This document shows positions 28,373-57,651 of a stretch of 64,000 nucleotides of DNA, piece by piece; within the stretch, counting starts at the first letter, position 1, and each line of letters starts with the position of its first letter. Under the pieces are notes generated by a model, which saw only the letters and a program-made list of their open reading frames with translations, was not told the origin of the DNA and ran no database searches. The position numbers and the translations under genes were made by a program. This DNA comes from Bacteroidia bacterium (GTDB taxonomy: Bacteria; Bacteroidota; Bacteroidia; Bacteroidales; VadinHA17): positions 38,702-102,701 of the forward strand of contig JAPLED010000065.1 in the NCBI GenBank assembly GCA_026391475.1, in the 5' to 3' direction.

Positions 28373-28412
28373 TATCTTGTACATAATATATAAATATTCC
28401 TCACACCCGACT

Positions 28413-34642: not shown

Positions 34643-35728
34643 ATGAAGATCAGGATTACTTTTTTCATTTTTATGACATTGTCATTTGCAGGATGTCAGA
34701 ACAATTATTTTACAGCAGAAGATTATCAGTCAGTTCTGAAAATCGATTCTCATGTTCACCTGAACAGCGATAAGGGCTACTTTGAAGATCAGGCCATGAA
34801 AGATAATTTTATGCTGATCACTCTGGGAGTCGATCATTCAGATTCTGCTTCGGTAAAACAGCAACTTGATTATGCACTTTTATCAACAAAAAAGTATCCC
34901 GGAAAGGTTTTCTACGGGGCAACCTTTTATTTTGATACGGCAGGATGGGGAACAGATAATTGGAGTAAAAAAGTGATCTCTCACCTGAATACCAATATTT
35001 CGGGAGGGGCAATTTCTGTCAAGATCTGGAAAAACATCGGAATGACTGTTACCGACAGAAACGGTAAGTTTATTATGGTTGATGACCCTGCGATTAAACC
35101 TGTGATAGATTTCATAATCAGTAAGAATCTACCTATCACAGGCCACCTTGGTGAACCGCGTAACTGCTGGCTTCCTCTGAACGAAATGACGGTAAGCAGC
35201 GACAGTAGTTATTTTGCCCGTAACCCGCAGTACCATATGTTCCTCCATCCGGAATATCCTTCTTATGAAGATCAGATAAATGCACGGGATCACCTTCTTG
35301 AGATGCATCCAGACCTGAAATTTATCGGGTGCCACCTTGGCAGTCTCGAATGGAACGTAGACGAACTCGCCAAAAGGCTCGATAAGTTCCCGAATTTGGC
35401 GGTTGACATGTCTGCCCGCATCTGCCATCTTCAATACCAGTCAGCCAAAGACCGCGAAAGAGTTCGTAATTTTTGCATAAAGTATCAGGACAGGCTGTTG
35501 TACGGTACCGACCTTGCAGATAGTGGGACCAATAACGGTGAAGGGCTTGCAAAACGGATACATGAAACCTGGCTTGATGACTGGAAATATTTCACTTCAA
35601 AAGATGAGATGACTTCAGATTTGTTCAAAGGGAAATTTGTAGGGCTTCAGCTTCCAAAAGAGGTGGTCAAAAAAATATTTAGTGAAAATGCGATCAAATG
35701 GTATAAGCTGAATAAATTGGCTCAATAA
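34643..35728 (+). CDS. Amidohydrolase-superfamily (amidohydrolase_2-like) metal hydrolase, lipoprotein
   Basis: 361 aa. Lipobox LSFAGC. IDSHVHL (HxH), GHLGEP, GCHLGS and YGTDL (strand-8 Asp) match the TIM-barrel amidohydrolase metal-ligand pattern. Confidence 0.68.
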   Translation: MKIRITFFIFMTLSFAGCQNNYFTAEDYQSVLKIDSHVHLNSDKGYFEDQAMKDNFMLITLGVDHSDSASVKQQLDYALLSTKKYPGKVFYGATFYFDTAGWGTDNWSKKVISHLNTNISGGAISVKIWKNIGMTVTDRNGKFIMVDDPAIKPVIDFIISKNLPITGHLGEPRNCWLPLNEMTVSSDSSYFARNPQYHMFLHPEYPSYEDQINARDHLLEMHPDLKFIGCHLGSLEWNVDELAKRLDKFPNLAVDMSARICHLQYQSAKDRERVRNFCIKYQDRLLYGTDLADSGTNNGEGLAKRIHETWLDDWKYFTSKDEMTSDLFKGKFVGLQLPKEVVKKIFSENAIKWYKLNKLAQ

Positions 35729-35839: not shown

Positions 35840-37303
35840 ATGAAGACAAGACCACATCACTTAAATCAGAATTTCACTCAGCCCTTCCTCAATTATTTTT
35901 TGAGGACGATTCTGATATTTTGTATTGCTGTACCACTACTGTTTTTGACCCGGTGCAAAACAGATATAACTGCCATTTATGAAACCGGAGTACCGGCATT
36001 TCATAGATGGGCGCCAACTCCGCCAATGGGATGGAACAGCTGGGATTGTTACGGTCCTACAGTTGTTGAAAATGAAGTTAAGGCAAATGCCGATTATATG
36101 GCAAAAAATCTTAAGAAATTTGGTTGGGAATATGTTGTTATAGATATACGCTGGTATATCGAAAACGATAAAGCCGGTGGTTATAACGAAGATAATCCGA
36201 TATACATCCTTGATGAATATGGCCGTTTAACTCCGGCTCTGAACCGCTTCCCTTCAGCGGCAAATGGTAAAGGATTTAAACCAATTGCTGATTATATCCA
36301 TAGTAAGGGCCTCAAATTCGGAATCCATATAATGCGGGGTATCCCTGTTATTGCTGTAAAGAAGAATACACCTATTCTAGGCAGCAGCGCTAAGGCCCAG
36401 GACATCTATACAACTGAGGGACAGTGCATGTGGCTCAGGGATATGTACACAATTGTTGCAGGTAAACCGGGGGCACAGGAGTACTATAATTCCCTGTTTC
36501 AGCTATATGCCTCATGGGGACTTGATTTTGTAAAGGTTGATGATCTTTCAGGACGCACCAAAGAAATTGAAATGGTGAGAAAAGCCATTGATAATTGTGG
36601 AAGGCCGATAGTAATTAGCATTTCTCCTGGCGGAGACAGGCCTGAAACGGCTGATTTTCTGAAGAATAATGTAAATATGTGGCGCACTTCGAATGATTTC
36701 TGGGATAACTGGCCGCAGCTTAAGAATCAGTTTTCAATTCTTCCCCGGTGGGTTTCACTTGGCGTTAAAGGTTGTTACCCTGACGGTGATATGCTTCCTC
36801 TTGGTAAAATAGGATTAAGGGCCGAACGCGGACAGTCACGTATGAGCGGATTCACGAAAGATGAACAATATACTTTAATGTCACTTTTTGCCATTTTCCG
36901 TTCACCATTAATGTTTGGCGGTGATCTGCCAGGCAACGATGAGTTTACACTATCATTGATCACAAACAAGGATGTTCTGGAAGTTAACCAGCACAGTATA
37001 AATGGTAAGCAACTTTTCAGGGAAAATGATATGATTGCATGGACATCTGACGATCCGAAAACAGGCGATAAATATCTGGCCCTTTTTAATGCCTCCGATC
37101 AACTACCGATTTTAAAAGGTCAGGATACACTTGGTATTGCGGTACCTGATGCAACTCCAATAACTGTTAAATTTGAACAGCTCGGCTTAACAGGAACTCA
37201 TACTGTTAAAGATTTATGGAGCAGGGAAAAACTTGGAAAATTTACAAATGAATTCACCCGGACCATTAACCGTCATGGTGCCGGACTTTATAGAATACAT
37301 TAA
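35840..37303 (+). CDS. GH27-like alpha-galactosidase family glycosidase
   Basis: 487 aa. PPMGWNSWDCYG and GLDFVKVDD correspond to the GH27 melibiase-fold N-terminal and nucleophile regions. Confidence 0.78.
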   Translation: MKTRPHHLNQNFTQPFLNYFLRTILIFCIAVPLLFLTRCKTDITAIYETGVPAFHRWAPTPPMGWNSWDCYGPTVVENEVKANADYMAKNLKKFGWEYVVIDIRWYIENDKAGGYNEDNPIYILDEYGRLTPALNRFPSAANGKGFKPIADYIHSKGLKFGIHIMRGIPVIAVKKNTPILGSSAKAQDIYTTEGQCMWLRDMYTIVAGKPGAQEYYNSLFQLYASWGLDFVKVDDLSGRTKEIEMVRKAIDNCGRPIVISISPGGDRPETADFLKNNVNMWRTSNDFWDNWPQLKNQFSILPRWVSLGVKGCYPDGDMLPLGKIGLRAERGQSRMSGFTKDEQYTLMSLFAIFRSPLMFGGDLPGNDEFTLSLITNKDVLEVNQHSINGKQLFRENDMIAWTSDDPKTGDKYLALFNASDQLPILKGQDTLGIAVPDATPITVKFEQLGLTGTHTVKDLWSREKLGKFTNEFTRTINRHGAGLYRIH

Positions 37304-37325
37304 AAACGAATTAAAACCTTTCACA

Positions 37326-38285
37326 ATGAAACGATTGAAAATCTTAATTCTTTTTGTGGCATTTATTGCATTCACTGTTTCTTCATCTTCCCAGATTCCT
37401 CAGCTTAAAAACAATGGAAAGACAACTCAGCTGATTGTGCATGGAAAACCTTTCTTAATGTTAGCTGGTGAGGCAAACAATTCATCCGGATCGAATATTG
37501 CACACATGGAAAAAACCACGAAAGATTTGAGAGAATCCAATCTGAATTCGTTGCTGGTTTCTGTTTCCTGGGAAATTGTTGAACCACAGGAAGGCATTTT
37601 TGATTTTAGCTCTGTGGATGAGCTAATCAGGGTTGCCAGAGAGAACGATATGAAATTATGCCTCTTGTGGTTTGCTTCATGGAAAAATGGTTCGAAAACA
37701 AAGGGAACCTGGAGTGAGGTGTTTGGGCAGGGAGATGATGCGGATCTGTTCTTCATGGCATGGCAATACTCACGTTACGTTAACACTATTGCAGAAGCAG
37801 GGAAGAAAGCGTATAACCTCCCCATGTTTGTTAACTGCTGGATGCCTCAGCCACGACCAAAGCCCGGCAAACCGGGAAATTACCCGAGTGGTGGCCCTAT
37901 CGTTTCTGTTCTGGATGTATGGAAAGCAGGAGCCCCTTCGGTTGACATTCTGGCACCCGATATTTATGGCGCTGATTTCAAGGATCAGGTCAATAACTTT
38001 CACAGGGCCGATAATCCCTTGTTTATACCGGAAACCAGCACAACAGAAGGACCGGCAAGCTGGGCATTTGCAGAACACGATGCTATCTGTTTTTCACCAT
38101 TCGGAATTGATAACAGAGGAAGCGTCATGGCAAGAGAGTATGCGCTTTTAAACCAATTAATGCCGGTTATTTACGGAGTGATAATCCCTCTTATGGCATC
38201 AGGGCATACCGTTCGAACCCATCAGAACCTGCAATATTTCATTTTAAAGTGTTGGTTTATGACAGATAGTTTCATCAGTATTTAA
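37326..38285 (+). pseudogene. Degenerate GH35-like (DUF5597-type beta-galactosidase-like) remnant: apparent in-frame internal deletion and C-terminal truncation
   Basis: Start at MKRLKILILFVAF. The N-terminal part (GKPFLMLAGEANNSS...VSWEIVEPQEGIFDF...LLWFASWKNG) and the later part (GTWSEVFGQGDDADLFFMAWQY...NYPSGGP...LFIPE) are family-like. No NE-type acid/base block lies between them, and the ORF stops after ~319 aa with a non-family-like tail. Confidence 0.5.
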
Positions 38286-38322: not shown

Positions 38323-38330
38323 TAGTTTTG
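38323..38330 (+). promoter_or_regulatory. Candidate -7 box TAGTTTTG upstream of the LacI regulator
   Basis: The sequence fits TAnnTTTG and lies 25 nt upstream of the ATG at 38355. It shares the extended string TTTTGCAGG with the box at 39386-39393. Confidence 0.4.
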
Positions 38331-38354
38331 CAGGTATCTTTAATCATAATTATT

Positions 38355-39377
38355 ATGATCAACATCAGGCAATCTGATATTGCAAAAGAGTTAAATATAT
38401 CGCGTGTTACCGTTTCTAAAGCCTTAAGAAACCATCCTGACATTTCTATAGAGATGAAAAAGAAGGTGAATGAAGCAGTAAAGAGAATGGGATATGTTCC
38501 AAACCTGATTGCAAAACAGCTTAACTCAAGGAAGACTTTTACCATAGGAATAGTGGTCCCTGATCTTGAGAACAACTTCTTTTCTTATGTCGTTGACAGC
38601 ATGATCGACTATGCAACCGAAAAAGATTATCGTGTAATTCTGACTGTCTCACGCGAAAAAGAAAGTGTCGAGAAACGTAATATTGAAAACCTGATAGGTA
38701 TGAGAGTAGATGGATTACTTGTATGTAACTCACAGGAAACTAAAGATACATTGATATACTCTCAAATAAAAAGGATGAAGATCCCCTTGGTTTTTTTCGA
38801 TAGGGTGGTTGCCGATGCCGGTTTTTCAAGTGTGGTTTTTGACGATAGAGCGGGTGCTATATCATCTCTTGATAAGGTAATCGGGGCAGGTTTTACCATG
38901 ATTGCTCATTTTGCCGGGTTTTCAGGGATTAACATTGGTAAAGAGAGGTGTGAAGGGTATCGTGCATCACTTGAAAAACATGGAATTCCTGTGAGAAAAG
39001 ATTGGATCATTGAGGGCGGTTATGAGCTAAAAGATGGCCAGAGTTCCTTTATGAAACTTTTAGCTCAGGGTGACATGCCGGAGGTAATTTTTACAGTTAA
39101 CGACAGGGTTGCTCTGGGTGCTTATAAAGCTGCAAAGGAAGCCGGTCTCAGGATCCCCGAAGATATAGGGATATTTGGTTATGGGTTCAGTGAAATTACC
39201 GACTTCTTTGATCCTCAACTGACTGTAATTAATCAGGATCCCAGGAAAATGGGACTGGAGGCTATCAGACTCCTACTAAATGAGATTGAGAAAAAAACTA
39301 AAACCGGCCAGAATAAAATCTACATCGAAGAAGAATTCCTTTGGAGAAAATCTGTTAAGCGTAAAGTGAAAAAGTAA
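38355..39377 (+). CDS. LacI-family transcriptional regulator
   Basis: I take the start at MINIRQSDIAKELNISRVTVSKALR (the HTH). The track ORF starts at a TTG inside the putative -7 box. The C-terminal part is a periplasmic-binding-protein-like sugar-binding domain. Confidence 0.88.
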   Translation: MINIRQSDIAKELNISRVTVSKALRNHPDISIEMKKKVNEAVKRMGYVPNLIAKQLNSRKTFTIGIVVPDLENNFFSYVVDSMIDYATEKDYRVILTVSREKESVEKRNIENLIGMRVDGLLVCNSQETKDTLIYSQIKRMKIPLVFFDRVVADAGFSSVVFDDRAGAISSLDKVIGAGFTMIAHFAGFSGINIGKERCEGYRASLEKHGIPVRKDWIIEGGYELKDGQSSFMKLLAQGDMPEVIFTVNDRVALGAYKAAKEAGLRIPEDIGIFGYGFSEITDFFDPQLTVINQDPRKMGLEAIRLLLNEIEKKTKTGQNKIYIEEEFLWRKSVKRKVKK

Positions 39378-39436: not shown

Positions 39437-41059
<1,623 letters not shown>

Positions 41060-41182
41060 AGTTTTTTATTAAATGACTATCGGTATTGATTAATAAAACC
41101 AGAAAATTTTTGAGTAAGGTTGGTTTTGAGATGGTTTAAAAATAACATGTTTTGGACTAAAGTCCACAATCAACTCATTATC

Positions 41183-41273
41183 AATAATCCCGGACTTAAG
41201 TCAGGGATTATTCAGCAACCTTAAAAATCGGGCTTTCCGCGTGCCGCTGAAGCTTCAGCGGAGGCGCAAGCCC
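41183..41273. repeat. Two strong palindromic hairpins in the ABC-F / epimerase intergenic region
   Basis: AATAATCCCgGACTT|AAGTCaGGGATTATT (41183-41212) is a 30-nt near-perfect palindrome. GGGCTT..GCG..CCGCTGAAGCTTCAGCGG..CGC.AAGCCC (41230-41273) is a nested palindrome followed by T-rich sequence. Confidence 0.65.
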
Positions 41274-41526
41274 TTAATTCTTCTTTATTCTTGATTCCTG
41301 ACACTCATATTTTATTATTCTATAAATCCTTCCAAAGGGTTGTCTTAAAAACCCCTTTTTAACCACAGTAAAACCATTGCGATCTTTGCAGTTAATGTTT
41401 TTTCTTTTCCTTCTCTGATAAAAATTTATTTCTGAAAATTAGTTGCATGGCAAAAAAATTATTACCTTTATTTATTAAAGTAATCGCGAAAGTTACCGTG
41501 TAAGTAAATATTTAATTTTTTGTTTT

Positions 41527-42528
41527 ATGAAGAAGATCGTAGTTGCCGGAGCAGGAGGTTTTATTGGCGGGCACCTTGTTAAAGAGTTGGTTAAAGCAGG
41601 ACAGCAGGTTAGAGCTGTTGATCTTAAACCCCTGAATGAATGGTACCAGGTTTCACCTGATGCTGATAATCTTGTCCTTGACCTCAGGCTCAGAGATAAC
41701 TGCTATCAGGCAGTGAACGGGTGTCATGAAGTCTTTAATCTTGCTGCCGATATGGGTGGCATGGGCTTCATAGAAAATAATAAAGCCGCCTGCATGATCA
41801 GCGTTTTGATCAATACCCACCTTCTTATTGCGTCAAAAGATTGCGGTATCGAGAGATTTTTCTATGCATCTTCTGCCTGCGTCTATAACGGTGAAAAACA
41901 GACCGATCCTGATAACCCCGGACTAAAAGAATCTGATGCTTATCCTGCATTGGCAGAAGATGGTTACGGGTGGGAAAAACTGTTCAGCGAACGCATGTGC
42001 CGTCATTTTTCAGAAGATTTCGGGCTGACAACCAGGATAGCAAGGTTTCACAATGTTTATGGACCTTCTGGTACTTTTGACGGTGGCCGGGAAAAAGCAC
42101 CTGCAGCAATCTGCCGTAAAGTGATTGAAGCAGGTATTACCGGGAATAAAGAGATCGTGATCTGGGGCGATGGTCTTCAGACTAGAAGTTTTATGTATAT
42201 TGACGATTGCATAAAGGGAATACAAGATATTATGTACAGTAATATCGAAGAACCTATCAACCTGGGAAGCAGTGAGATGGTATCGATAAACGTACTTGTC
42301 GATATTGTTGAAGATATTGCAGGGTATAAGCTTAAAAGGATATATGATCTGAAAGCTCCGAAAGGAGTAAGGGGGCGTAACTCTGAAAATACTCTTATAA
42401 AGAAATACCTTGGATGGGAGCCCTCAATACACCTCAGAAATGGGATGAAAAAAACATACGATTGGATAAGCGTGCAGGTTGTTAACGAGAACAGGAGTAA
42501 AAAAGGGGTTAATCGCTTCAATAAATAA
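41527..42528 (+). CDS. Extended-SDR NDP-sugar epimerase, GDP-mannose 3,5-epimerase-like
   Basis: 333 aa. It has GAGGFIGGH (Rossmann motif), YASSACVY and YGWEK (YxxxK). The long block RFHNVYGPSGTFDGGREKAPAAICRK, together with AADMGGMGFI, is what I recognise from GDP-mannose 3,5-epimerases. Confidence 0.72.
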   Translation: MKKIVVAGAGGFIGGHLVKELVKAGQQVRAVDLKPLNEWYQVSPDADNLVLDLRLRDNCYQAVNGCHEVFNLAADMGGMGFIENNKAACMISVLINTHLLIASKDCGIERFFYASSACVYNGEKQTDPDNPGLKESDAYPALAEDGYGWEKLFSERMCRHFSEDFGLTTRIARFHNVYGPSGTFDGGREKAPAAICRKVIEAGITGNKEIVIWGDGLQTRSFMYIDDCIKGIQDIMYSNIEEPINLGSSEMVSINVLVDIVEDIAGYKLKRIYDLKAPKGVRGRNSENTLIKKYLGWEPSIHLRNGMKKTYDWISVQVVNENRSKKGVNRFNK

Positions 42529-42541
42529 GTCACATCTGTTG

Positions 42542-43678
42542 ATGAAAAACAAAAAGGTCCTGGTCAGCGGCTGTTATGACCTGCTTCATGGCGGGCATAT
42601 AGCTTTTTTCAAAACAGCTTCATCTTATGGGGATTTATACGTCAGTATCGGCAGAGATGAAAATCTTCTCTTTCTGAAAGGAAAGAAACCGGTTTTTTCT
42701 GAGGATGAACGGTTATATATCGTAAAGTCGATTAAATATGTTTATAATACTTTCCTTGCCTCAGGAACAGGAATGCTCGATTTTGAACCGGACATGAAGA
42801 AGATAAAGCCAGATATATTTGTTGTTAACCACGATGGCCATACTCCTGAGAAAGAGAATCTTTGTAAAAAACTGGGAGTAGAATATATTATACTGGAGCG
42901 TATTCCGGAACCGGGATTGCCGGCACAATCGAGTTCCGGAACAAAAAGGGATATGAAGTTCCCTTACAGGTTATGCCTTGCAGGTGGCTGGATTGATCAG
43001 CCATGGGTATCAAAGATGCATCCGGGATCGGTAGTCGTTGCGCAGATCTGGCCAACTATGGATTTTAACGACAGGTCGGGTCTGGCTACGAGTTCAAGGA
43101 AAGTCGGGATACAGATCTGGGGCGACAGATACCCCGACGGTGACCATGAACAAAATGCAAGGTTGTTGTTCGGAGCCGAAAATCCTCCCGGTAAAGTGTA
43201 TGTCTCCGGGTCGCAGGATCAGATCGGACTATTATACCCCGGTATAAACAGGCTATATTATAACGGCGGATATTGGCCTGAGAGAATCGAATCAACAACT
43301 GAAAAAGATATCTGCGACTGGCTTTCAGATATTCTTCACCTTGTTCCGCTTGAACCTCGTCCTGAAGGGTATGATCCGCTGAAAGTTATGCACTTGGAAA
43401 AACCTTTGATCAGAGAACTGGGTGAGGCAGGTGATCTGTGTTGGGAGGCTATCCTTAAAAAAGATGTTAACGGCCTGGGAAAAGCATTGACCAATACTCT
43501 TCTTTCATGGAAAAAAATATTGCCTCTCACAGTACCTGACTGGGTGATGAAAGAGATGGAGTCAAAATATTTTCCGAATTATCCGGGTGCAATTACCTCC
43601 GGAAGCGGAGGAGGTTATGTTATTGTCGTTTCGGAAACGAAAATCGAAGGATCTATTAAAATAAAAATCAGATACTAA
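42542..43678 (+). CDS. Fusion protein: N-terminal cytidylyltransferase-fold nucleotidyltransferase + C-terminal GHMP-kinase-like domain
   Basis: 378 aa from the ATG at 42542; the track ORF starts at an upstream TTG overlapping the epimerase. VLVSGCYDLLHGGHIAFF carries the HxGH nucleotidyltransferase signature. DRSGLATSS resembles GHMP motif II, and TSGSGGGYVIVV resembles GHMP motif III. Confidence 0.6.
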   Translation: MKNKKVLVSGCYDLLHGGHIAFFKTASSYGDLYVSIGRDENLLFLKGKKPVFSEDERLYIVKSIKYVYNTFLASGTGMLDFEPDMKKIKPDIFVVNHDGHTPEKENLCKKLGVEYIILERIPEPGLPAQSSSGTKRDMKFPYRLCLAGGWIDQPWVSKMHPGSVVVAQIWPTMDFNDRSGLATSSRKVGIQIWGDRYPDGDHEQNARLLFGAENPPGKVYVSGSQDQIGLLYPGINRLYYNGGYWPERIESTTEKDICDWLSDILHLVPLEPRPEGYDPLKVMHLEKPLIRELGEAGDLCWEAILKKDVNGLGKALTNTLLSWKKILPLTVPDWVMKEMESKYFPNYPGAITSGSGGGYVIVVSETKIEGSIKIKIRY

Positions 43679-43697
43679 TATTTTAAATCTAACAACC

Positions 43698-45215
43698 ATG
43701 AAATTAAATCTCTTTAGAAAATGTAGTTTGCTGATTCTGTTAGTTGCAGGAATAGCTTTTTCTATTTCAGCTCAGCAGCCAAAACCTCCGGTTGCAGAAA
43801 GACCTTACAAACCTACTGACGAGTCACTCAGGCAATATCAATATCCTGAGTGGTTCCGTGATGCCAAATTTGGTATATGGTCGCACTGGGGACCTCAGGC
43901 AGTACCACGTCAGGGCGACTGGTATGCCAAAAGGCTTTATCAGGAAGGAAGTCCGGGTTATAAATACCATGTCGAGCATTACGGACATCCCTCCGAATTC
44001 GGTTACAAGGATATTATTCCACTCTGGAAAGCAGAGAGATGGGATCCTGAAAAACTGATGGAACTCTATAAAAAAACAGGTGCAAAATACTTTGTCAGCA
44101 TGGGCACTCATCACGATAATTTTTTTCTGTGGAACTCAAAGCTCAATAACTGGAATTCTGTTAATATGGGCCCGAAGAAAGATGTTGTCGCACTCTGGCA
44201 GCAGGCAGCAAAAAAGCAGGGTCTCAAATTCGGAGTTTCAGAGCACCTGGGTGCCAGTTACACATGGTTCCAGACTTCCCATGGCGCTGATAAGCAAGGA
44301 CCTAAGGCCGGTGTTCCATACGATGGTGCAAACCTCGATTATCAGGATCTGTATCACGCAAATGCTACACCGGATGATAAGGATTGGCTGACTAAGAACC
44401 CGGCATTTCAACTGGAATGGTATAGAAGCATTAAAGAGCTGGTAGATAACTATCAACCTGATCTTCTTTATTCAGACAGCAAGATGCCATTCGAAGATGT
44501 GGGACGCACACTTATATCGCTTTTTTATAATCAGGATATTACAAAAAATAATGGAAAACTCGAAGCTGTCTATACCTGCAAACAACCATCCGGTGGCTTG
44601 TGGGTTGAGGATGTTGAACGTGGTGTAAAAGACACAATCATCCAGTACCCTTGGCAGACAGACACATCTATCGGCGACTGGTATTACCGGACCGGTCAGA
44701 AATATAAAACCGGTACCGAAGTGATACAGATGCTGGTAGATATTGTGAGCAAGAATGGCAACCTGCTGATCAATGTTGTACAGACACCTGAAGGCGACCT
44801 CGAACCCGACATGCTTGCTATCCTTGAAGAGATTGGCGTCTGGACAAACGCAAACGGTGAAGGAATTTATGGTTCACGTCCCTGGAAAATCTATGGGGAG
44901 AAACCATCAAACACACCGGTTGCTAAGCGCGGAAGATTCGATGAGAACTATAAATTTACTTCAAAAGATATCCGCTTTACAACAAAAGGCAACACTCTTT
45001 ATGCATTTTGTCTGGGAAAACCTGAAACCGACGTGATGATTAAATCTCTCGCAAAATCCTCAAAATTAGCCGATAAGGCCATAGCTTCCGTTACCATGGT
45101 TGGCAGTAAGGAGAAAATCAGCTGGAAACAGTCAGCTGATGCTCTCACGATTAAAAAACCGGCAAATATGCCAACATGGCAAGTTATTGCTTTTAAAATC
45201 GAGTTCAAAAAATAA
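43698..45215 (+). CDS. Alpha-L-fucosidase family GH29, secreted
   Basis: 505 aa with a signal peptide. The signature is AKFGIWSHWGPQAVP, followed by a C-terminal beta-sandwich. It starts 19 nt after the preceding gene. Confidence 0.85.
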   Translation: MKLNLFRKCSLLILLVAGIAFSISAQQPKPPVAERPYKPTDESLRQYQYPEWFRDAKFGIWSHWGPQAVPRQGDWYAKRLYQEGSPGYKYHVEHYGHPSEFGYKDIIPLWKAERWDPEKLMELYKKTGAKYFVSMGTHHDNFFLWNSKLNNWNSVNMGPKKDVVALWQQAAKKQGLKFGVSEHLGASYTWFQTSHGADKQGPKAGVPYDGANLDYQDLYHANATPDDKDWLTKNPAFQLEWYRSIKELVDNYQPDLLYSDSKMPFEDVGRTLISLFYNQDITKNNGKLEAVYTCKQPSGGLWVEDVERGVKDTIIQYPWQTDTSIGDWYYRTGQKYKTGTEVIQMLVDIVSKNGNLLINVVQTPEGDLEPDMLAILEEIGVWTNANGEGIYGSRPWKIYGEKPSNTPVAKRGRFDENYKFTSKDIRFTTKGNTLYAFCLGKPETDVMIKSLAKSSKLADKAIASVTMVGSKEKISWKQSADALTIKKPANMPTWQVIAFKIEFKK

Positions 45216-45484: not shown

Positions 45485-46846
45485 ATGACAAAGAGAAGAG
45501 AATTTATCAAAAAAAGCATTTTAGGAACTGCCGGAATAGCCATTGGCGGTATGGGCTTAAGTTCCAGATCATATGCTTCAATCATCGGTGCCAATGACAG
45601 GCTTAACCTGGCAGTAATTGGTATCCGCGGCCAGGGGGGTACACACATCAACAGCTGGTGCAGCCTTAAAGAGAGCAAGAATATTCGCCTGAAAACCCTC
45701 TGCGATGCTGATGAACAGTATTTTGCAGCAAAGGTAAAAACAGTTGTTGACAAAACAGGAGAGACCCCAACAACTACATGGGATATGCGTAAAGTGTTTG
45801 AAGACAAAGAAATAGACGCAGTATCGATGGCTATCCCAAATCACTGGCATGCACTTGGTACAATTTGGGCCTGTCAGGCCGGTAAACATGTTTATGTTGA
45901 AAAGCCCGCTACTTATGGTGTTTTTGAAGGCCGGAAAATGGTCCAGGCAGCCCGGAAATACAATGTCCGGGTACAGGCCGGTACACAAAACCGATCGATC
46001 CCCGGTGTTATGCAGGCTATGAAGTTCCTGCATGATGGAGGTATCGGTGAGGTGTTTATGTCAAAAGGTCAATGCTATAAACCACGTGATTCTTTCGGAA
46101 TTGCAAAAGATAGTACACCTCCTGAAACACTTCATTATGAATATTGGTTAGGTCCGGCTCCATACAGACCATATAACGAAAAACATGTACATTATAACTG
46201 GCACTGGTTCTGGGCTACAGGAGGTGGTGACACTGCTAATCAGGGTCCTCACCAGTTTGATATTGCCCGCTGGGGACTCAATAAGAACGAACACCCGGTT
46301 TCAATATTCTCAATGGGTGGTCTTTACGGAATAAATCCGGCTGAATGCGAACAGGAGACACCCAATACACAAACATCATTGTTTAGGTACAAGGATGGAA
46401 AAATGCTGGAATTTGAAACGCGTGGGCGTTATACAAATGGTGAATCAAGTATGGATATCCGGATTGGAAACACTTTTTATGGTACTGAAGGGTACCTCGA
46501 ACTTGATGGCGGCCAGTGGAAAGCTTTTCGCAAGCGCGAAAACAAACCTTTTGCAGGTTCCGATGTTGGTGAAAGACCTACCGATGTTATGGCAGCCCCC
46601 GGTGGATCAAGTCATTATGGTAATTTTATTGATGCAATACGTTCGGGTAAGAATGATGACTTGCATTGCGATATACTTGAAGGATTTATGTCTGCTGCGC
46701 TTCCTGCACTTGCCAATATTTCATACCGTCTGGGTCGTGAGTTAATATTTGACGGTACGAAAGAAAAGTTTGTTGAAGACCCCCAGGCAGATAAAATGCT
46801 GACAAGAGAGTACCGTAAACCTTATGTTGTTAATGATGAGGTTTAA
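45485..46846 (+). CDS. Gfo/Idh/MocA-family NAD(P) oxidoreductase with a twin-arginine signal
   Basis: 453 aa. MTKRREFIKKSILGTAGIAIGG is the TAT motif. LNLAVIGIRGQGGTH is the Rossmann start, and the EKP motif appears in VYVEKPAT. Confidence 0.85.
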   Translation: MTKRREFIKKSILGTAGIAIGGMGLSSRSYASIIGANDRLNLAVIGIRGQGGTHINSWCSLKESKNIRLKTLCDADEQYFAAKVKTVVDKTGETPTTTWDMRKVFEDKEIDAVSMAIPNHWHALGTIWACQAGKHVYVEKPATYGVFEGRKMVQAARKYNVRVQAGTQNRSIPGVMQAMKFLHDGGIGEVFMSKGQCYKPRDSFGIAKDSTPPETLHYEYWLGPAPYRPYNEKHVHYNWHWFWATGGGDTANQGPHQFDIARWGLNKNEHPVSIFSMGGLYGINPAECEQETPNTQTSLFRYKDGKMLEFETRGRYTNGESSMDIRIGNTFYGTEGYLELDGGQWKAFRKRENKPFAGSDVGERPTDVMAAPGGSSHYGNFIDAIRSGKNDDLHCDILEGFMSAALPALANISYRLGRELIFDGTKEKFVEDPQADKMLTREYRKPYVVNDEV

Positions 46847-47032: not shown

Positions 47033-47794
47033 ATGGAAAATCAAAACAATAACAGACGCAGTTTTATTAAAAAAGCCGCTTTGGGCGGATTAATGGCAGT
47101 CAGTATTCCCGAAATACTGTCAGCTGCAATGGTTTCCGAAGGAGGAAAGAAAAATACTTTAATGAAAGATAACGTCATCCTTTTCCAAGGTGACTCAATA
47201 ACAGATTCCGGCAGAAACAAAGAGGATAATTCTTACAACAATGCAAGAGCTCTTGGCTCGGGTTACCCTATGCTGGCAGGTGCTACACTTCTGGAAAAAT
47301 ATGCATCGCTGAATCTTAAAGTATATAATAAAGGTATTTCAGGGAATAAAGTATATCAGTTGGCTGAACGATGGGATAAAGATTGTCTCGATCTTAAACC
47401 TGATGTTCTAAGTATCCTGATCGGGGTTAATGATATCTGGCATAAACTGAACGGACAATACAATGGTACTGTTGAGATCTATAAAAAAGACTATATCGCT
47501 CTCCTTGAAAGAACAAAAAAGGCGCTGCCCAATGTGAAACTTATTATCTGTGAGCCATTTGCAGTGCGGGGAGTAAAAGCAGTTGATGATAAATGGTACC
47601 CTGAATTCTATGACTATCAGAAAGCTGCTAAAGATATTGCCACACAATTCGGAGCAACCTTCGTTCCCTATCAGAAAATATATGATGAGGCACAGAAACA
47701 GGCACCGGGTGCTTATTGGACAGGTGATGGTGTTCACCCTTCCCTGGCTGGAGCCCAACTGATGGCACAGGCATGGCTTACAGCTATAAAGTGA
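47033..47794 (+). CDS. SGNH/GDSL hydrolase (carbohydrate esterase-like) with a TAT-like signal
   Basis: 253 aa. NNRRSFIKKAALGG is the TAT-like motif. The four SGNH blocks are present: block I LFQGDSITDSG, block II GISGN, block III IGVNDI and block V DGVHPS. Confidence 0.82.
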   Translation: MENQNNNRRSFIKKAALGGLMAVSIPEILSAAMVSEGGKKNTLMKDNVILFQGDSITDSGRNKEDNSYNNARALGSGYPMLAGATLLEKYASLNLKVYNKGISGNKVYQLAERWDKDCLDLKPDVLSILIGVNDIWHKLNGQYNGTVEIYKKDYIALLERTKKALPNVKLIICEPFAVRGVKAVDDKWYPEFYDYQKAAKDIATQFGATFVPYQKIYDEAQKQAPGAYWTGDGVHPSLAGAQLMAQAWLTAIK

Positions 47795-47876
47795 TTTCTT
47801 TGTGTAAGGCACTAAGTTTAACTTCGTTGAGGGCTTCGCCGTTCACAAAGCTGGATTTTAATCTAATTCTTATTAC

Positions 47877-48668
47877 ATGAGACAAAATTGGTTGTTCTTT
47901 GGGCTGTTTACTCTTGCTATTTTATCTGTGGCCGCTAAGAAAGGTCTTAATTCTTCAGTATTCGATTGGGAAAATGTTAAGGCTAAAAAGGAAAGCTCTG
48001 GTGAAGTCAGGAGTTTCTTAAAAAGTCCTACCCGAAGCCTGAAAATGTTTGAAATAAAAGCTATTACATTATATCCAAGTAAGGATGCTCAGGGATATAG
48101 TGTTGAGAAAGGGTTAAATGAATTGATTATCATAAAAGAAGGCGTTGCTGAAATCAGTATAAATGATGAGCGAAGAGTTCTCGGTGAAGGAAGTGTAGTT
48201 GTCGTGTCAGAAGGCGATAACGTGGAAATAACGAATACACAAAATACAAATGCAGTGTATTACTCATTCCGTTTTAAACCTTATCAAAAGGAAGGTCAGA
48301 ATAAGACGATAAAAATGATTTCTCCTGTATTCATTGACTGGAATAAAATTGAATTTGTAACATCTGCTAATGGCGGAAGACGCAATATTATGCAGCAACA
48401 AACTGCTATGCTGAAGGAACTTGAGATTCATGTTACAACTCTTAAAGAAGGATTACCAAGCCATAATGCACATGTTCATCCGGATGAGGAAATTATTCTG
48501 GTACGAAAGGGATTTGTTGAAGAGACCATTAAAGGAAAACCATACAGGCTGGGACCAGGATCTGTAATCTTCTTAACCAATGATGATCTTCATGGTATAA
48601 GCAATGCCGGAACAGGTCAGTGTGAATATTATGCAATCAGGTGGCTGACAGAAATGCCGGCAAAATAG
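47877..48668 (+). CDS. Secreted bicupin protein
   Basis: 263 aa with a signal peptide. The C-terminal cupin has intact motifs (HNAHVHPDEEIILVRKG and GPGSVIFLTNDDLHGISN). The N-terminal cupin lacks the His ligands. Confidence 0.68.
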   Translation: MRQNWLFFGLFTLAILSVAAKKGLNSSVFDWENVKAKKESSGEVRSFLKSPTRSLKMFEIKAITLYPSKDAQGYSVEKGLNELIIIKEGVAEISINDERRVLGEGSVVVVSEGDNVEITNTQNTNAVYYSFRFKPYQKEGQNKTIKMISPVFIDWNKIEFVTSANGGRRNIMQQQTAMLKELEIHVTTLKEGLPSHNAHVHPDEEIILVRKGFVEETIKGKPYRLGPGSVIFLTNDDLHGISNAGTGQCEYYAIRWLTEMPAK

Positions 48669-48681
48669 TAACTGAAGTACT

Positions 48682-48701
48682 ACTGTTAATTAATTAACAG
48701 T
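48682..48701. repeat. Perfect 20-nt AT-rich palindrome ACTGTTAATTAATTAACAGT
   Basis: I read this directly from the sequence. It lies 14 nt after the cupin stop codon and 50 nt before the next ATG. Confidence 0.7.
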
Positions 48702-48751
48702 TAATTTTGATTTAATTCAATTCGCATTTAATCAATTAATTATATAAAAGC

Positions 48752-50167
48752 ATGAAACAACTTTTTTCTTCTTTAATGACATTATTGATTGCACTTGTCA
48801 TTTCTTCCGGCGCCCTTTATGGTGAAGTAAAATTGCCGGCGATATTTGGCGATAATATGGTATTGCAGCAACAGACTGATGCAGCTATATGGGGAACAGC
48901 TGCAAAAAATGCTACAATTAAAGTTACAACATCATGGAATAATAAAAATTATTCTGCCAGGGCTGGTAATGACGGAAAATGGAAACTTAAGGTTGCTACA
49001 CCATCAGCAGGCGGACCTTATGAAGTTACTATCAGCGATGGTACAACATTGAGACTGAAAAATGTAATGATAGGGGAGGTTTGGGTCTGTTCAGGGCAGT
49101 CGAATATGGAAATGCCTATGAAGGGCTATATGAATCAACCCATAGCAGGATCGATTGAAGCTATTGCAACTTCTTCAAATCCTGCAATCCGTTTATTTAC
49201 AGTGAAAAAGGCCATAAGCTTGCAACCATTAGATGATTTTTCAGGAAGCTGGAAGAATTGTGAACCTGAAAATGTCAGCGAATTCAGTGCAACTGCTTAC
49301 TATTTTGGTTTAATGCTGTATGAGACGTTGAAAGTTCCGATAGGACTGATCAATACCAGCTGGGGAGGTACCCGTATCGAACCCTGGATCAGCGAAAATG
49401 GATTTCAAAAATTTGATTTTATTAAACTTCCGGATAAAAACCAGCAAGGGACTCTTTCGCAGCAGACACCTACTGTTTTATTTAATGCAATGATAAACCC
49501 TATGGTTGGCTATGGTATCAAAGGCGCAATCTGGTATCAGGGTGAATCAAACCGCAATGAAGCGAACCAATATGTCCAGTTGTTGCCAGGGATGGTCGAA
49601 AACTGGCGTTCTGTATGGGGTGTTGGCGATTTCCCATTCTACTATGTTCAGATAGCTCCTTACGATTATGGACCAACCGGTTTGAGCTCTGCATATCTGC
49701 GCGAAGCTCAACTTAAAGCATCAACTGCAATTCCTGATATTGGTATGGCCTCTATCATGGATATTGGTGAAAAAGATTGTATTCATCCAGCCAATAAAAA
49801 GGCCGGGTCTGACCGTCTTGCATTTCTTGCCCTTGCAAAAACCTATGGAAAAGCCGGATTTGCCAGCTCAGGACCTGTCTTCAAGGAAATGATAGTTACA
49901 GGTTCGGTAGTAAAGCTGACTTTCAATAACGCAGTCAATGGTCTTACTTCATATGGAAAAGATCTGTCGTGTTTCGAGATTGCGGGTGCAAATAAACGAT
50001 TCTTCCCGGCCAAAGCATTTATAATTGGTAGTGGGATTACCCTGTTTTGCCCGTCTGTTGCAGAACCTGTTGCTGTAAGGTATGCTTTCAAAGACTTTAT
50101 TATAGGAGACCTGTTCAATACTGAAGGTTTACCGGCATCATCGTTCCGTACTGATAATTGGGAATAG
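48752..50167 (+). CDS. Sialate O-acetylesterase-like (SASA/DUF303) carbohydrate esterase, secreted
   Basis: 471 aa with a signal peptide. GEVWVCSGQSNME carries the catalytic-Ser block typical of the SASA family, and GAIWYQGESN is also present. Confidence 0.82.
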   Translation: MKQLFSSLMTLLIALVISSGALYGEVKLPAIFGDNMVLQQQTDAAIWGTAAKNATIKVTTSWNNKNYSARAGNDGKWKLKVATPSAGGPYEVTISDGTTLRLKNVMIGEVWVCSGQSNMEMPMKGYMNQPIAGSIEAIATSSNPAIRLFTVKKAISLQPLDDFSGSWKNCEPENVSEFSATAYYFGLMLYETLKVPIGLINTSWGGTRIEPWISENGFQKFDFIKLPDKNQQGTLSQQTPTVLFNAMINPMVGYGIKGAIWYQGESNRNEANQYVQLLPGMVENWRSVWGVGDFPFYYVQIAPYDYGPTGLSSAYLREAQLKASTAIPDIGMASIMDIGEKDCIHPANKKAGSDRLAFLALAKTYGKAGFASSGPVFKEMIVTGSVVKLTFNNAVNGLTSYGKDLSCFEIAGANKRFFPAKAFIIGSGITLFCPSVAEPVAVRYAFKDFIIGDLFNTEGLPASSFRTDNWE

Positions 50168-50200: not shown

Positions 50201-52588
50201 ATGAAAAAAAATATCTTCTTATTCTTCCTGGTTGTGGCATTTAGTCTGCCAGTCAAATCACAAACAGAAATTACACCTAAACTGGGCAAGGATCCTGTTA
50301 AAAAGGTCATTGCAGCAATGACCCTTGAAGAAAAAGCCGGTCTGGTTGTCGGCACAGGAATGAGGATGCCAGGTGCCCCGCCTGCTGCATCTGCTGCAAA
50401 TACTCCGGCAGCTCCGGTTATCGGGCAAACCCAAAGTCTGGTTGCCGGTGCAGCCGGTACATCTTTTGCAATTCAGTGTCTGGGTATAACACCCATGGTA
50501 CTGGCTGATGGTCCTGCCGGGTTAAGAATCAGCCCGACCAGGGAGAATGATAAGAATACCTATTATTGTACAGCTTTTCCGGTCGCTACCTTACTCGCCT
50601 CGACCTGGGATACTGAGCTGGTAAACAAAGTAGGGCAGTCGATAGGTAATGAAGTTCTTGAATACGGAGCAGACGTTTTGTTGGGCCCCGGAATGAATAT
50701 TCATCGTAACCCGTTGTGCGGAAGGAACTTCGAATACTATTCTGAAGATCCTTATGTTACAGGTAAAATTGCAGCTGCCATGGTTAATGGTGTTGAGTCG
50801 CAGGGCGTAGGCACCTCTGTGAAGCACTTTGCTGCCAACAACGCTGAAACAAACAGGAATTCACTGAATACAAACATCAGCGAACGGGCATTGCGTGAGA
50901 TTTATCTTGAGGGATTCAGGATTGTCGTGCAGGAAGGTCAGCCATGGACTATAATGTCTTCCTATAACCTCATTAACGGTATTTATACATCTGAAAATCC
51001 TGAGCTTCTGACAAACATTTTAAGAAAGGACTGGGGTTTCAAAGGGTATGTAATGACCGACTGGTTTGGGGGTAAGGATCCGGTAGCTCAGATGATTGCC
51101 GGAAATGATTTACTTATGCCGGGAAACCCGGGCCAGGTTCAGACAATAATCAAAGCTGTTCAGGATGGTAAACTTGATGTCAAAATATTAGATAAAAACG
51201 TTGAAAGAATTCTGAATATAATACTGCAGAGTCCACGATTCAAAGGCTATAAATTTTCCAATAAACCTGATCTTAAAGCTCATGCACAGATAACACGTCA
51301 GGCTGCTGCTGAAGGAATGGTATTGTTGAAAAATGTAAATGGTGCATTACCGTTTGGAACTGCAATCAAAAATATTGCTGCCTTCGGTAATACTTCTTAT
51401 GAAATAATTACCGGTGGAACGGGTAGCGGTGATGTAAATGAGGCTTATAGTATTTCGCTTATAGATGGATTGCAGAATGCCGGTTTCAAAGCTAATGAAG
51501 ACCTTCATGCACTTTATGCCAACTACCTGAAACTTACAAAAGCAGGCCGCCCGCAAAACAGGGGATTTATGATGGGATCAAAACCCATTGAAGAACTGAA
51601 TCTCAACCAGGATATAATCAATGGGATGGCAAATTTATCCGATGCAGCGATTATTACGATAGGAAGAAACTCAGGTGAGGGAAGCGATCGTGCCAATGCA
51701 AAAGGTGATTTTCAGCTAAGCGATTATGAACAGCAACTCATTAAAAATGTGTCAACTGCATTTAAAGCAAAAGGGAAAAAGGTGGTAGTTATACTGAATG
51801 TGGGTGGTGTAATTGAAACTGCGAGCTGGCGAGTTTTGCCAGACGCAATACTTATTGCCTGGCAGGCCGGTCAGGAAACCGGAAATTCAATTGCTGATAT
51901 CGTAAGCGGTAAGGTCAACCCCTCAGGTAAAATTGCAACCACATTCCCTGTAACTTATGAAGATGTTCCGTCAGCAAAAACTTTTCCCGGAAAAGAATTG
52001 CCGGCAGAACAGTCTGCCGATCAGAGCCCTTTGAGTTCGTTCATGAGAATCAGGCCCGCAGTTGTTACTTATGAGGATGGTATTTATGTAGGTTATCGTT
52101 ACTACGAGACATTTAAGGTGAAACCTGCCTATGAATTTGGGTACGGATTGTCCTACACAAACTTTGCATATAGTAACATTAAACTGAATTCTCCAAAATT
52201 TACCGGCAGCATTACCGTTACAATTGATATAAAAAATAGTGGAACAGTCGCTGGTAAAGAGGTCGTAGAACTTTATCTCACTGCGCCAGCAGTAAAACTC
52301 GATAAACCGGCTTTGGAACTGAAAGGCTTTGCAAAAACAAGACTCCTCCAACCAGGGGAATCACAAACATTGACTTTTAAAATTGACAGCCGCAACCTTT
52401 CATCATTCTACCCTGTCAGTTCATCGTGGATTGCAGAAGCAGGGAAATATGAGGTAAAGATTGGAGCATCATCAAAAGATATAAGGCAAAGTGCTTCCTT
52501 CACACTGGCTAAAGATCTTACGGTTAAAAAAGAAAGCGTTTCACTTTTGCCAAAAGAAAAGATAAATGAGCTGAAACCCGGAATATAA
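50201..52588 (+). CDS. GH3 beta-glycosidase (beta-glucosidase/xylosidase type), secreted
   Basis: 795 aa. It contains KHFAANNAETNR and GYVMTDW (the nucleophile Asp region), plus a C-terminal fibronectin-III-like domain. Confidence 0.88.
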   Translation: MKKNIFLFFLVVAFSLPVKSQTEITPKLGKDPVKKVIAAMTLEEKAGLVVGTGMRMPGAPPAASAANTPAAPVIGQTQSLVAGAAGTSFAIQCLGITPMVLADGPAGLRISPTRENDKNTYYCTAFPVATLLASTWDTELVNKVGQSIGNEVLEYGADVLLGPGMNIHRNPLCGRNFEYYSEDPYVTGKIAAAMVNGVESQGVGTSVKHFAANNAETNRNSLNTNISERALREIYLEGFRIVVQEGQPWTIMSSYNLINGIYTSENPELLTNILRKDWGFKGYVMTDWFGGKDPVAQMIAGNDLLMPGNPGQVQTIIKAVQDGKLDVKILDKNVERILNIILQSPRFKGYKFSNKPDLKAHAQITRQAAAEGMVLLKNVNGALPFGTAIKNIAAFGNTSYEIITGGTGSGDVNEAYSISLIDGLQNAGFKANEDLHALYANYLKLTKAGRPQNRGFMMGSKPIEELNLNQDIINGMANLSDAAIITIGRNSGEGSDRANAKGDFQLSDYEQQLIKNVSTAFKAKGKKVVVILNVGGVIETASWRVLPDAILIAWQAGQETGNSIADIVSGKVNPSGKIATTFPVTYEDVPSAKTFPGKELPAEQSADQSPLSSFMRIRPAVVTYEDGIYVGYRYYETFKVKPAYEFGYGLSYTNFAYSNIKLNSPKFTGSITVTIDIKNSGTVAGKEVVELYLTAPAVKLDKPALELKGFAKTRLLQPGESQTLTFKIDSRNLSSFYPVSSSWIAEAGKYEVKIGASSKDIRQSASFTLAKDLTVKKESVSLLPKEKINELKPGI

Positions 52589-57637: not shown

Positions 57638-57651
57638 AAAATCCTGAAAAA

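Follow-up and report, generated by a model that had tools for sequence, protein, structure and literature searches.

A conserved operon of a GDP-mannose 3,5-epimerase homologue, a compact transferase/kinase fusion and a GH29 in Bacteroidales, with a possible role in the activation of L-galactose or L-fucose

Analysis of a 64,000-nucleotide stretch of contig JAPLED010000065.1 from a Bacteroidia bacterium (Bacteroidales, VadinHA17; hereafter the window) showed three adjacent plus-strand genes within a polysaccharide utilization locus (PUL). Gene 1 (41527-42528, 333 aa) encodes a homologue of GDP-mannose 3,5-epimerase (GME, also GM35E), a cytoplasmic extended short-chain dehydrogenase/reductase (SDR); gene 2 (42542-43678, 378 aa) a fusion of an HxGH transferase and a GHMP kinase; and gene 3 (43698-45215, 505 aa) a secreted glycoside hydrolase of family 29 (GH29). 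We read this trio as a regulated operon that would channel L-galactose and perhaps also L-fucose into nucleotide-sugar metabolism in a catabolic, Leloir-like manner, and give this reading a probability of about 0.5. Which sugar and which nucleotide are used, in which direction the flux runs and how the operon is regulated are inferences from gene order, folds, residues and neighbourhood, all read in silico. An L-galactose/L-fucose activation module had already been proposed from the nucleotide letters and their translations (the sequence-only reading), and it was supported at the three points named beforehand as critical to it, namely GHMP homology of the C-terminal half of gene 2, the grouping of gene 1 with GMEs, and the company that the genes keep in related genomes. 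Additional support for an activation function came from the closest solved relative of gene 3, from an extension of the operon by a FucP permease and a mutarotase in a related genome, and from active-site residues of the type found in the bifunctional L-fucokinase/pyrophosphorylase FKP.

The intergenic gaps were 13 and 19 nt, as first read. The frame of gene 2 is open from a TTG at 42479, and the ATG at 42542 gives a product of 378 aa that matched all homologues end to end. In phmmer searches of the PDB, gene 1 was closest to plant GMEs (8sg0 and 2c59; E 3.2e-96 to 5e-96), followed at a large distance by GDP-fucose synthase (8.7e-29) and by 4-epimerases (2e-25 or worse), which places it with GME and not with ordinary 4-epimerases. 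Its identity to the plant enzyme 8sg0 was 48% over 314 aligned residues, the same level as the 50.5% identity to AtGME of MfGM35E, the only characterised bacterial GME (PMC6678494). The Pfam match was to the generic NAD-dependent epimerase/dehydratase family only, and no NCBIfam equivalog was found for gene 1. The blocks RFHNVYGPSGTFDGGREKAPAAICRK and AADMGGMGFI, from which its assignment had originally been made, were present in the translation, together with an NAD motif of the GxxGxxG type (GAGGFIGG, aa 8) and three catalytic blocks: SSAC (aa 115-118, with Ser and Cys), YGWEK (aa 147-151, with Tyr and Lys) and GGREK (aa 186-190, with the second acid/base Lys). These line up with the SSAC, YGLEK and GGREK blocks of GMEs, in which the roles of the catalytic Ser/Tyr/Lys and of the Cys/Lys acid/base pair have been described (PMC6678494). 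On this sequence evidence, gene 1 was accepted as a GME homologue.

Gene 3 carries an N-terminal signal peptide (MKLNLFRKCSLLILLVAGIAFSISA) and matched the Pfam family Alpha_L_fucos (PF01120) at 310.8 bits (cut-off 25.2), and a Fucosidase_C domain was also present; its earlier assignment as a signal-peptide GH29 was thus correct. Its best solved relative was BpGH29 (Bacple_01702; 7SNK, 7LJJ; E 1.4e-96, 327 bits, residues 42-504), with the next solved GH29 at 1.8e-60. BpGH29 is a characterised exo-alpha-L-galactosidase from the porphyran PUL of Bacteroides plebeius, and according to a 2026 screen L-galactosidase activity is reported only for one narrow clade within GH29, from bacteria of the gut and the sea. 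The two proteins share the GH29 catalytic and C-terminal domains over approximately 460 matched residues; BpGH29 differs in being longer, at about 600 aa, owing to an additional region at its C-terminus, and in its partnership with a 6-O-sulfatase on porphyran. No sulfatase, agarase or porphyranase was identified among the scanned window open reading frames (ORFs) of at least 200 aa. The proximity to BpGH29 favours L-galactose as the target of gene 3, without proving it.

Gene 2 was confirmed, by sequence profiles and a structural model, as an HxGH transferase joined to a compact kinase of the fucokinase/HddA branch. The sequence-only reading had called both domains correctly, since profile search, AlphaFold model and Foldseek comparison agreed on them. 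The N-terminal domain with its linker (42542-42958, + strand, aa 1-139) has a cytidylyltransferase fold, with a match spanning residues 5-136, and includes the block VLVSGCYDLLHGGHIAFF with the signature H16-G-G-H19; it scored 44.8 bits against PF01467 (cut-off 21) and 42.8 bits against TIGR00125 (cut-off 27.7). The best solved relatives were 3glv (1.2e-11) and TagD (2b7l, 6.5e-11), with ECT also among them. In Foldseek searches the predicted domain matched 3glv (E 1e-9, template-modelling (TM) score on target 0.79), 2b7l (TM 0.84-0.85), HldC (5xf2, TM 0.67-0.72) and Fom1.

The C-terminal domain (42959-43678, + strand, aa 140-378) was assigned as a shortened GHMP sugar 1-kinase; it comprises about 239 aa instead of the 230 or so first estimated. 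Searched alone, this domain gave no Pfam match even at E 10, so that its GHMP nature became visible only by profile or structure. A profile built from 25 stand-alone homologues of approximately 240 aa had the fucokinase domain of Bacteroides fragilis FKP as its best kinase match (E 4e-16), followed by the heptose kinases HddA and WcbL (7e-12 to 2e-8; HddA 6.7e-12, WcbL 7e-9) and by mevalonate kinase (1e-6), and some relatives of gene 2 reached the threshold of PF08544 (GHMP_kinases_C). Motif I was YRLCLAGGWIDQP (aa 142), motif II DRSGLATSS (aa 177-185) and motif III SGSGGGY (aa 353), the last lying in the previously noted block TSGSGGGYVIVV (aa 352-363). The catalytic loop reads SGSQD (aa 222-226), with D226 aligned to D762 in the GGWQD loop of FKP, and D152, G180, G223 and D226 were invariant across the stand-alone kinase homologues. 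In FKP, fucose-1-phosphate binding and catalysis involve Arg592, Trp599, Asp601, Gln761 and Asp762, the last acting as general base (PMC11982464). The corresponding residues of gene 2 are R143, W150, D152, Q225 and D226, all invariant in an alignment of 101 sequences; Thr602 of FKP alone was replaced, by an invariant Gln. The domain is smaller than canonical two-lobed GHMP kinases (approximately 239 vs. 300-360 aa) and is about 100 residues short because motif II nearly adjoins motif I, with a spacing of about 30 residues compared to 90-120 in HddA and FKP.

The AlphaFold prediction from the alignment of 101 diverse sequences reached a predicted local distance difference test (pLDDT) score of 86.6, while 31 near-identical sequences gave only 46.6 and an unusable model. 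The model showed two domains joined by a disordered linker (residues 129-136). Foldseek matched the C-terminal domain to WcbL, HddA (3k85), FKP (9IIP) and galactokinase (1s4e), each with a probability of 1.00, at TM scores of 0.45-0.50 and rmsd values of 7-9 Å.

The closest functional parallel is FKP itself (PDB 5YYS, 9IIP, 9IIT), in which a GHMP sugar-1-kinase and a nucleotidyltransferase are likewise combined in one polypeptide, and which also accepts L-galactose to form GDP-L-galactose (PMC11982464). The two kinases are homologous and share the Arg, Trp, Asp and Gln-Asp that bind fucose-1-phosphate. The transferases, in contrast, are non-homologous, with an N-terminal pyrophosphorylase region of approximately 500 aa in FKP and an HxGH fold of approximately 135 aa in gene 2. 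The proteins also differ in size, at about 360 aa (9IIP fragment) vs. 239 aa for the kinase part and 949 vs. 378 aa overall, and gene 2 did not match the FKP model PRK13412 of NCBIfam. What would be new in gene 2 is an FKP-like activation built from a different transferase fold and placed within a putative Leloir-like L-sugar operon.

Both halves of gene 2 also resemble heptose enzymes, and an alternative is that gene 2 is a kinase/adenylyltransferase for heptose or another sugar phosphate (HddA-like plus HldC-like), supplying an ADP- or CDP-sugar for lipopolysaccharide (LPS), with no meaning in its adjacency to GME and GH29. The top NCBIfam match of the N-terminal domain was indeed rfaE_dom_II (HldE domain II), HddA, WcbL and HldC recurred in profile and fold searches, and one family member (P0122) lies beside a gene of the Glyco_transf_9 heptosyltransferase family. 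HldE domain II and HldC are HxGH-fold sugar-1-phosphate adenylyltransferases and provide a precedent for this fold acting on sugar 1-phosphates, while HddA and WcbL are the closest GHMP kinases to gene 2 after FKP. However, the score against rfaE_dom_II was 45 bits compared to a cut-off of 181.5, and the heptose families in general scored far below their curated equivalog cut-offs; HldE has a ribokinase-fold kinase, heptose phosphate substrates and other genomic partners; the best kinase match was FKP; no GmhA or GmhB neighbours were seen; and the association with FucP, mutarotase, GH29 and GME indicates a free L-hexose, not a heptose 7-phosphate. We regard this explanation as very improbable.

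The trio proved to be conserved among close relatives. The best 120 database matches to gene 2 had 81-97% identity, were nearly all 378 aa in length and came from metagenome-assembled genomes (MAGs) of Bacteroidales/Bacteroidota; more than 150 columns were invariant among 30 homologues in this identity range. Synteny was read in the long contigs of this clade (at least 81% identity), and the order GME-fusion-GH29 was kept in every one read (L001, L002, L091, L092 and L093), with L094 as a partial case. An orthologous LacI regulator gene directly follows the GH29 gene in L001, L002 and L092 and directly precedes GME in L091; L093 retains the trio with no LacI gene called within the 17 kb read. 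The position of gene 2 here is not incidental, since in the contigs read its clade invariably has the GH29 as a neighbour; a LacI gene is there in almost all cases, and FucP plus a mutarotase in a single one. This single case is contig L091, where the operon reads LacI-GME-fusion-GH29-FucP-RhaM. The two terminal genes (10929-12653 of L091) encode a permease of the major facilitator superfamily (MFS), matching the FucP model TIGR00885 with 404.9 bits (cut-off 280.4) and the L-fucose:H+ symporter FucP of Escherichia coli (3O7Q) with E 2e-101, and a RhaM-family mutarotase of 130 aa. The lack of a nearby sugar permease pointed out in the sequence-only reading is true of the window, but does not extend to the operon of this relative.

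In the window the LacI gene (38328-39377, + strand; Pfam LacI plus Peripla_BP_1/3/4) is separated from the trio by an ABC-F ATPase gene (39449-41059). Its product is 72-73% identical to the LacI proteins found after GH29 in L001 and L002 and before GME in L091, and it probably regulates the trio. A conserved 29-bp element, AAGTAATCGCGAAAGTTACCGTGTAAGTA, is present at 41478-41506 (+ strand), 21 nt upstream of the ATG of gene 1. It recurs upstream of GME in L001 and L092 and upstream of the operon-heading LacI gene in L091, with 28 invariant columns in the four-way alignment, and the copies of L001 and L092 contain TACACG-N10-CGTGTA. The element is a candidate LacI-family operator or promoter element.

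The layout of L091 follows the logic of the Leloir/Isselbacher operon for D-galactose (GalM, GalK, GalT or UDP-sugar pyrophosphorylase, GalE, GalP and GalR), with the same set of parts: genes for glycosidase, permease and mutarotase, a GHMP 1-kinase, a nucleotide activation step, an SDR epimerase that turns the sugar nucleotide into a central one, and a regulator of the LacI/GalR type. Of these parts, the window encodes all but the permease and the mutarotase, with LacI nearby. The Leloir system differs in acting on a D-sugar, in using UDP (GDP would be used here), in 4-epimerisation as opposed to a 3,5 double epimerisation, and in its unfused kinase and transferase; the Gal enzymes share only the GHMP and SDR superfamilies with the proteins of L091 and the window, and none is orthologous to them.

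In the proposed pathway, the periplasmic GH29 would trim terminal alpha-L-galactose (or L-fucose) from the oligosaccharides imported by the PUL. A FucP-type symporter would carry the free sugar over the inner membrane, and a RhaM-family mutarotase would anomerise it (both encoded in the close relative, not in the window). The GHMP domain of gene 2 would phosphorylate O1 of the beta-L-sugar, and its HxGH domain would combine the sugar 1-phosphate with an NTP to yield an NDP-beta-L-galactose, presumably the GDP form. The GME homologue would then convert GDP-L-galactose by 3,5-epimerisation to GDP-D-mannose, the thermodynamically favoured partner. The equilibrium of GDP-mannose:GDP-L-galactose:GDP-L-gulose reached by GME is 80:15:5 (PMC6678494), so that flux from L-galactose to mannose would run downhill. 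Housekeeping GDP-mannose pyrophosphorylase, phosphomannomutase and phosphomannose isomerase could finally lead GDP-mannose to fructose 6-phosphate, with some of it perhaps diverted to glycans. The steps shared with the plant ascorbate (Smirnoff-Wheeler) pathway would run in the reverse direction.

Known bacterial L-galactose catabolism has the same substrate and likewise occurs in glycan-foraging Bacteroidota and Verrucomicrobiota (BVU_0219-0222 of Bacteroides vulgatus and LguA-H of Luteolibacter). These routes are oxidative, from L-galactose dehydrogenase through L-galactonate to D-tagaturonate, and differ from the one proposed here in involving neither phosphorylation at C1 nor a nucleotide sugar. 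In the literature found, bacterial L-galactose catabolism was limited to such oxidative routes, and nothing was found on an L-galactokinase or on an L-galactose PUL linked with GDP-mannose or an epimerase. We tentatively put forward a new catabolic route in some Bacteroidota, and probably in some Spirochaetota and Verrucomicrobiota, in which L-galactose would pass via beta-L-galactose 1-phosphate, GDP-L-galactose, GDP-D-mannose and mannose 1-phosphate to fructose 6-phosphate, by means of a compact kinase/guanylyltransferase whose HxGH fold has gained specificity for GTP and L-hexose 1-phosphate.

Several observations weigh against the catabolic L-galactose operon. Within the window, no inner-membrane sugar permease, mutarotase or GDP-mannose-consuming enzyme was found. 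The characterised HxGH transferases close to gene 2 all use ATP or CTP and none uses GTP, and the GDP product is assumed solely from the GME partner and from the association of the family with GDP-mannose 4,6-dehydratases. Residue 129 of gene 2 is Gln (CAA, 42926-42928) as opposed to Arg (CGN-type codon) in 100 of the 100 other aligned members, including the 97%-identical P0001. Where a phosphate-binding motif of the type R-(S/T)-x-x-x-S-T would be expected at the end of the transferase domain, the family has R129-S/T-S/T-S/T and the window copy Q129-S-S-S; 3glv has Asn at the aligned position. This single-base difference may be natural variation or an error of the assembly, or it may mean that the transferase is weakened. 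Gene 3 is only moderately identical to BpGH29, which leaves room for a fucosidase specificity. The contigs with the conserved trio represent one fairly narrow clade, and part of their synteny therefore reflects inheritance. Finally, the sole genetically studied member of the gene 2 family, Amuc_1591 of Akkermansia muciniphila, has been read as biosynthetic (PMC13313206), and diverged members lie in loci of LPS-core or capsule type.

The last two observations support the main rival, in which the trio would serve salvage and de novo synthesis of an activated L-sugar for the surface glycans of the cell itself, as FKP does. The GH29 would free L-fucose or L-galactose, gene 2 would form GDP-L-fucose or GDP-L-galactose, the GME would produce GDP-L-galactose from GDP-mannose at times when external sugar is lacking, and the products would go to fucosyl- or L-galactosyltransferases encoded elsewhere. 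Amuc_1591 has the same architecture as gene 2, with an N-terminal adenylyl/cytidylyltransferase followed by a C-terminal fucokinase-like domain, and was proposed, on the basis of genetics and modelling on FKP 9IIP, to be a fucose nucleotidyltransferase feeding glycans of the outer membrane and envelope; it was found via suppressors resistant to D-arabinose (V176G, G326E and a frameshift; PMC13313206, 2026). The two-domain combination, which had not been recognised as characterised in the sequence-only reading, thus has a precedent, one that consists of genetics and modelling only. Amuc_1591 is a distant relative, is reported from a murJ transcription unit, was interpreted as serving envelope biosynthesis and lacks a GME, GH29 or LacI partner. 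ORFs of 384-388 aa from Akkermansia MAGs (L015, L017, L018) were 34-35% identical to gene 2 over the first 180-190 residues or so (L015 vs. gene 2 residues 4-177, blastp E 1.9e-22), with the motifs PLRVDFAGGWLD, GWQD and GGGHGGY. They carry V176 and G326, the positions of the suppressor alleles, with Gly326 inside GHMP motif III, and the residue numbering suggests that they are orthologous to Amuc_1591.

Other evidence for such a salvage role includes diverged family members in LPS-core clusters (L085, L086), beside Gmd-like, Fcl-like, Bac_transf and CapD-like genes (L089) and beside GT4 or GT2 genes (L003, L004), and literature reviews tie bacterial GMEs only to LPS or antibiotic biosynthesis. 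The suspicion that the gene pair belongs to capsule or LPS loci therefore holds for some members of the wider family but not for the clade of the window. In the contigs read, that clade was never found beside glycosyltransferases and instead showed a catabolic-operon layout with secreted GH29, almost always LacI and once FucP plus mutarotase; no glycosyltransferase was found in the 64-kb window; and GDP-L-galactose is disfavoured at the GME equilibrium. Salvage for surface glycans is somewhat unlikely in our view, though it deserves serious consideration. As an observation on the Akkermansia loci, a stand-alone HxGH transferase gene (139 aa; 145 aa in L016) directly follows the two-domain ORF in L015-L019 (L015:9998-11589), and its product is 42-45% identical to the N-terminal domain of gene 2, compared to 31-35% for the fused domain.

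A search of the wider family showed how far this fusion extends. In a profile search with an E-value limit of 1e-30 the family numbered at least 6,790 proteins, and members with 41-55% identity to gene 2 occurred in Bacteroidota, Chloroflexota, Verrucomicrobiota, Planctomycetota and others. A scan of GTDB with the peptide pattern G[CF]FDx[LF]HxGH returned only homologues of 42-46% identity and missed the close relatives because the clade of the window reads GCYD. An exhaustive search of 1.84 billion representatives with the C-terminal domain gave 572 relatives at E <= 1e-3 in three forms: stand-alone proteins of approximately 240 aa, fusions of approximately 380 aa, and longer fusions in which a RhaM mutarotase, a GT2, a PNP_UDP_1 domain or a GDP-mannose 4,6-dehydratase is added. 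Triple fusions of RhaM, HxGH and GHMP domains (P0135, P0286, P0302, P0339, P0348 and P0355; 580-590 aa or so) were followed by FucP in L087 (4224-7306) and L088, an arrangement that would amount to a full free-sugar activation unit in two genes; against PRK13412 a triple-fusion relative scored 52 bits (cut-off 721), at the kinase C-terminus only. A FucP homologue also lies directly after the ordinary fusion in L006, L009 and L021. P0190, of 601 aa, joins a GDP-mannose 4,6-dehydratase directly to a short GHMP kinase without a transferase domain, and this, together with the Gmd-like and Fcl-like neighbours in L089, ties the family to GDP-sugars.

Outside the clade of the window, in two other phyla, GMEs with 59-60% identity to gene 1 were located near kinase and nucleotidyltransferase genes. 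The distance was about 2 kb in a Verrucomicrobiae MAG (L004). In a Rectinemataceae MAG (L020:5053-11842) a GME with 59% identity was accompanied by kinase and transferase as separate genes, namely a short GHMP kinase standing alone and a protein of 341 aa with a C-terminal HxGH domain after about 200 aa of unrecognised N-terminal sequence, as well as by an L-fucose isomerase, a XylR-like regulator, a PfkB kinase and sugar regulators. MurB, MurA and Fe-ADH genes neighbour the member in L083. Clustering of neighbours across the distant loci gave no universal partner; MFS/FucP proteins occurred in three loci, as did an SDR cluster with two GME-like members. Judged by these contexts, the gene 2 family would have a general function as kinase/nucleotidyltransferase on free sugars with the L-fucose configuration, serving salvage in some lineages, and the clade of the window is the one wired to GME, GH29 and LacI. 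Public names for family members were "cytidyltransferase-like" and even "FAD synthase" (P0070 and P0106, of the gene 2 clade); the latter looks like a misannotation, presumably derived from the N-terminal HxGH domain, since half of the protein is a GHMP kinase and the genomic context does not fit the name.

The recurrent pairing with FucP equivalogs also suggests that gene 2 could be a fucose-only, compact FKP analogue, with the GME-like enzyme either acting on the 6-deoxy product (e.g., interconverting GDP-L-fucose and GDP-D-rhamnose) or unrelated, and with no L-galactose involved. The fucose-binding residues of FKP type are retained, GH29 is mostly a fucosidase family, and a second GH29 gene is present in the window (13944-15353, - strand). 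On the other hand, gene 1 resembles authentic GMEs no less closely than the validated bacterial GME does, gene 3 is nearest to an L-galactosidase, and no use of GDP-D-rhamnose is known that would account for an operon of catabolic style. Moreover, the clade of the window differs from the general, FucP-associated clade at approximately 40 clade-specific positions, many of them in the kinase domain, among them D145C (adjacent to motif I), Q323W, M330T and the greater part of motif III, which would fit a changed sugar preference. A role restricted to fucose thus appears improbable.

L-Galactose occurs in red-algal galactans, rhamnogalacturonan II, some xyloglucans, and invertebrate and microbial glycans. 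If the catabolic L-galactose operon exists as proposed, a GME-dependent route would constitute a third way for an L-sugar into central metabolism and would give bacterial GMEs a catabolic role, with improved PUL annotation and carbon-flow models for environmental Bacteroidales as a consequence. Gene 2 represents a large, almost unannotated family that apparently comprises compact, non-orthologous analogues of FKP. FKP is the standard enzyme in the chemo-enzymatic synthesis of GDP-fucose analogues, and the 378-aa gene 2 protein, which may prefer L-galactose, could in combination with GME be useful for making GDP-L-sugars.

In the surroundings of the trio, leucine/isoleucine-valine (leu/ilv) biosynthesis genes (594-12244, - strand) precede a PL6-like lyase (12518-13936, -) and the second GH29. 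Two AP_endonuc_2 genes (xylose-isomerase-like TIM barrels) are located at 15427-16419 (-) and 33656-34534, two SusC/SusD pairs at 17092-27262, a CE15-like esterase at 28377-29819, an MR_MLE enzyme at 29955-31211 (-), a PL10 pectate lyase at 31252-32340 (-), an Amidohydro_2 protein at 34643-35728 and a GH27 at 35840-37303. Downstream of the trio lie a GFO/IDH/MocA oxidoreductase with a twin-arginine translocation (TAT) signal (45485-46846), genes for a GDSL esterase, a cupin protein and a SASA esterase (47033-50167), and a GH3 (50201-52588). The GFO/IDH/MocA protein matched the model of the glycoside 3-dehydrogenase BT_2158 below its cut-off, and its gene and the two xylose-isomerase-like genes are found with the trio in relatives as well. 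These three genes may encode a system of the PUL for oxidative glycoside cleavage.

The Amidohydro_2 gene is a consistent neighbour: in L093 and L094 it immediately precedes GME, and L001, L002, L091 and the window also have it in the company of the trio. For its product, neither a solved homologue at E < 1e-3 nor an NCBIfam match was found, and its candidacy as the lactonase of an oxidative L-fucose/L-galactose pathway was rejected for want of such a homologue. The MR_MLE enzyme was likewise rejected as a fuconate dehydratase: its best matches were uncharacterised racemase-family proteins and a galactonate dehydratase, and none of the hits at E <= 1e-20 bore the name fuconate dehydratase.

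Ahead of gene 1 is a non-coding leader of 467 bp (41060-41526). A scan of the whole window, leader included, gave no Rfam family at gathering score. Sigma-70 promoter-like sites showed no excess (12 found vs. 11.6 expected from shuffles), nor was there any enrichment of the Bacteroidetes -7 motif TAnnTTTG (51 vs. 67.6 expected). Downstream of the ABC-F gene, the leader contains a perfect 18-bp palindrome, CCGCTGAAGCTTCAGCGG, at approximately 41244-41261 and two further near-palindromes, TTTGGACTAAAGTCCACA and CCCGGACTTAAGTCAGGG, which could be terminator-like or similar to repetitive extragenic palindromic (REP) elements. An ORF at 37233-38285, which overlaps the end of the GH27 gene and has a weak 50-residue GH42 match and an odd C-terminus, probably represents a glycosidase gene that has been truncated or frameshifted. 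Past the PUL, three successive MacB/FtsX-type permease genes of approximately 790-800 aa, one of them on the minus strand, occupy 52606-60027 and are followed by a sigma-54 response regulator at 60829-62193.

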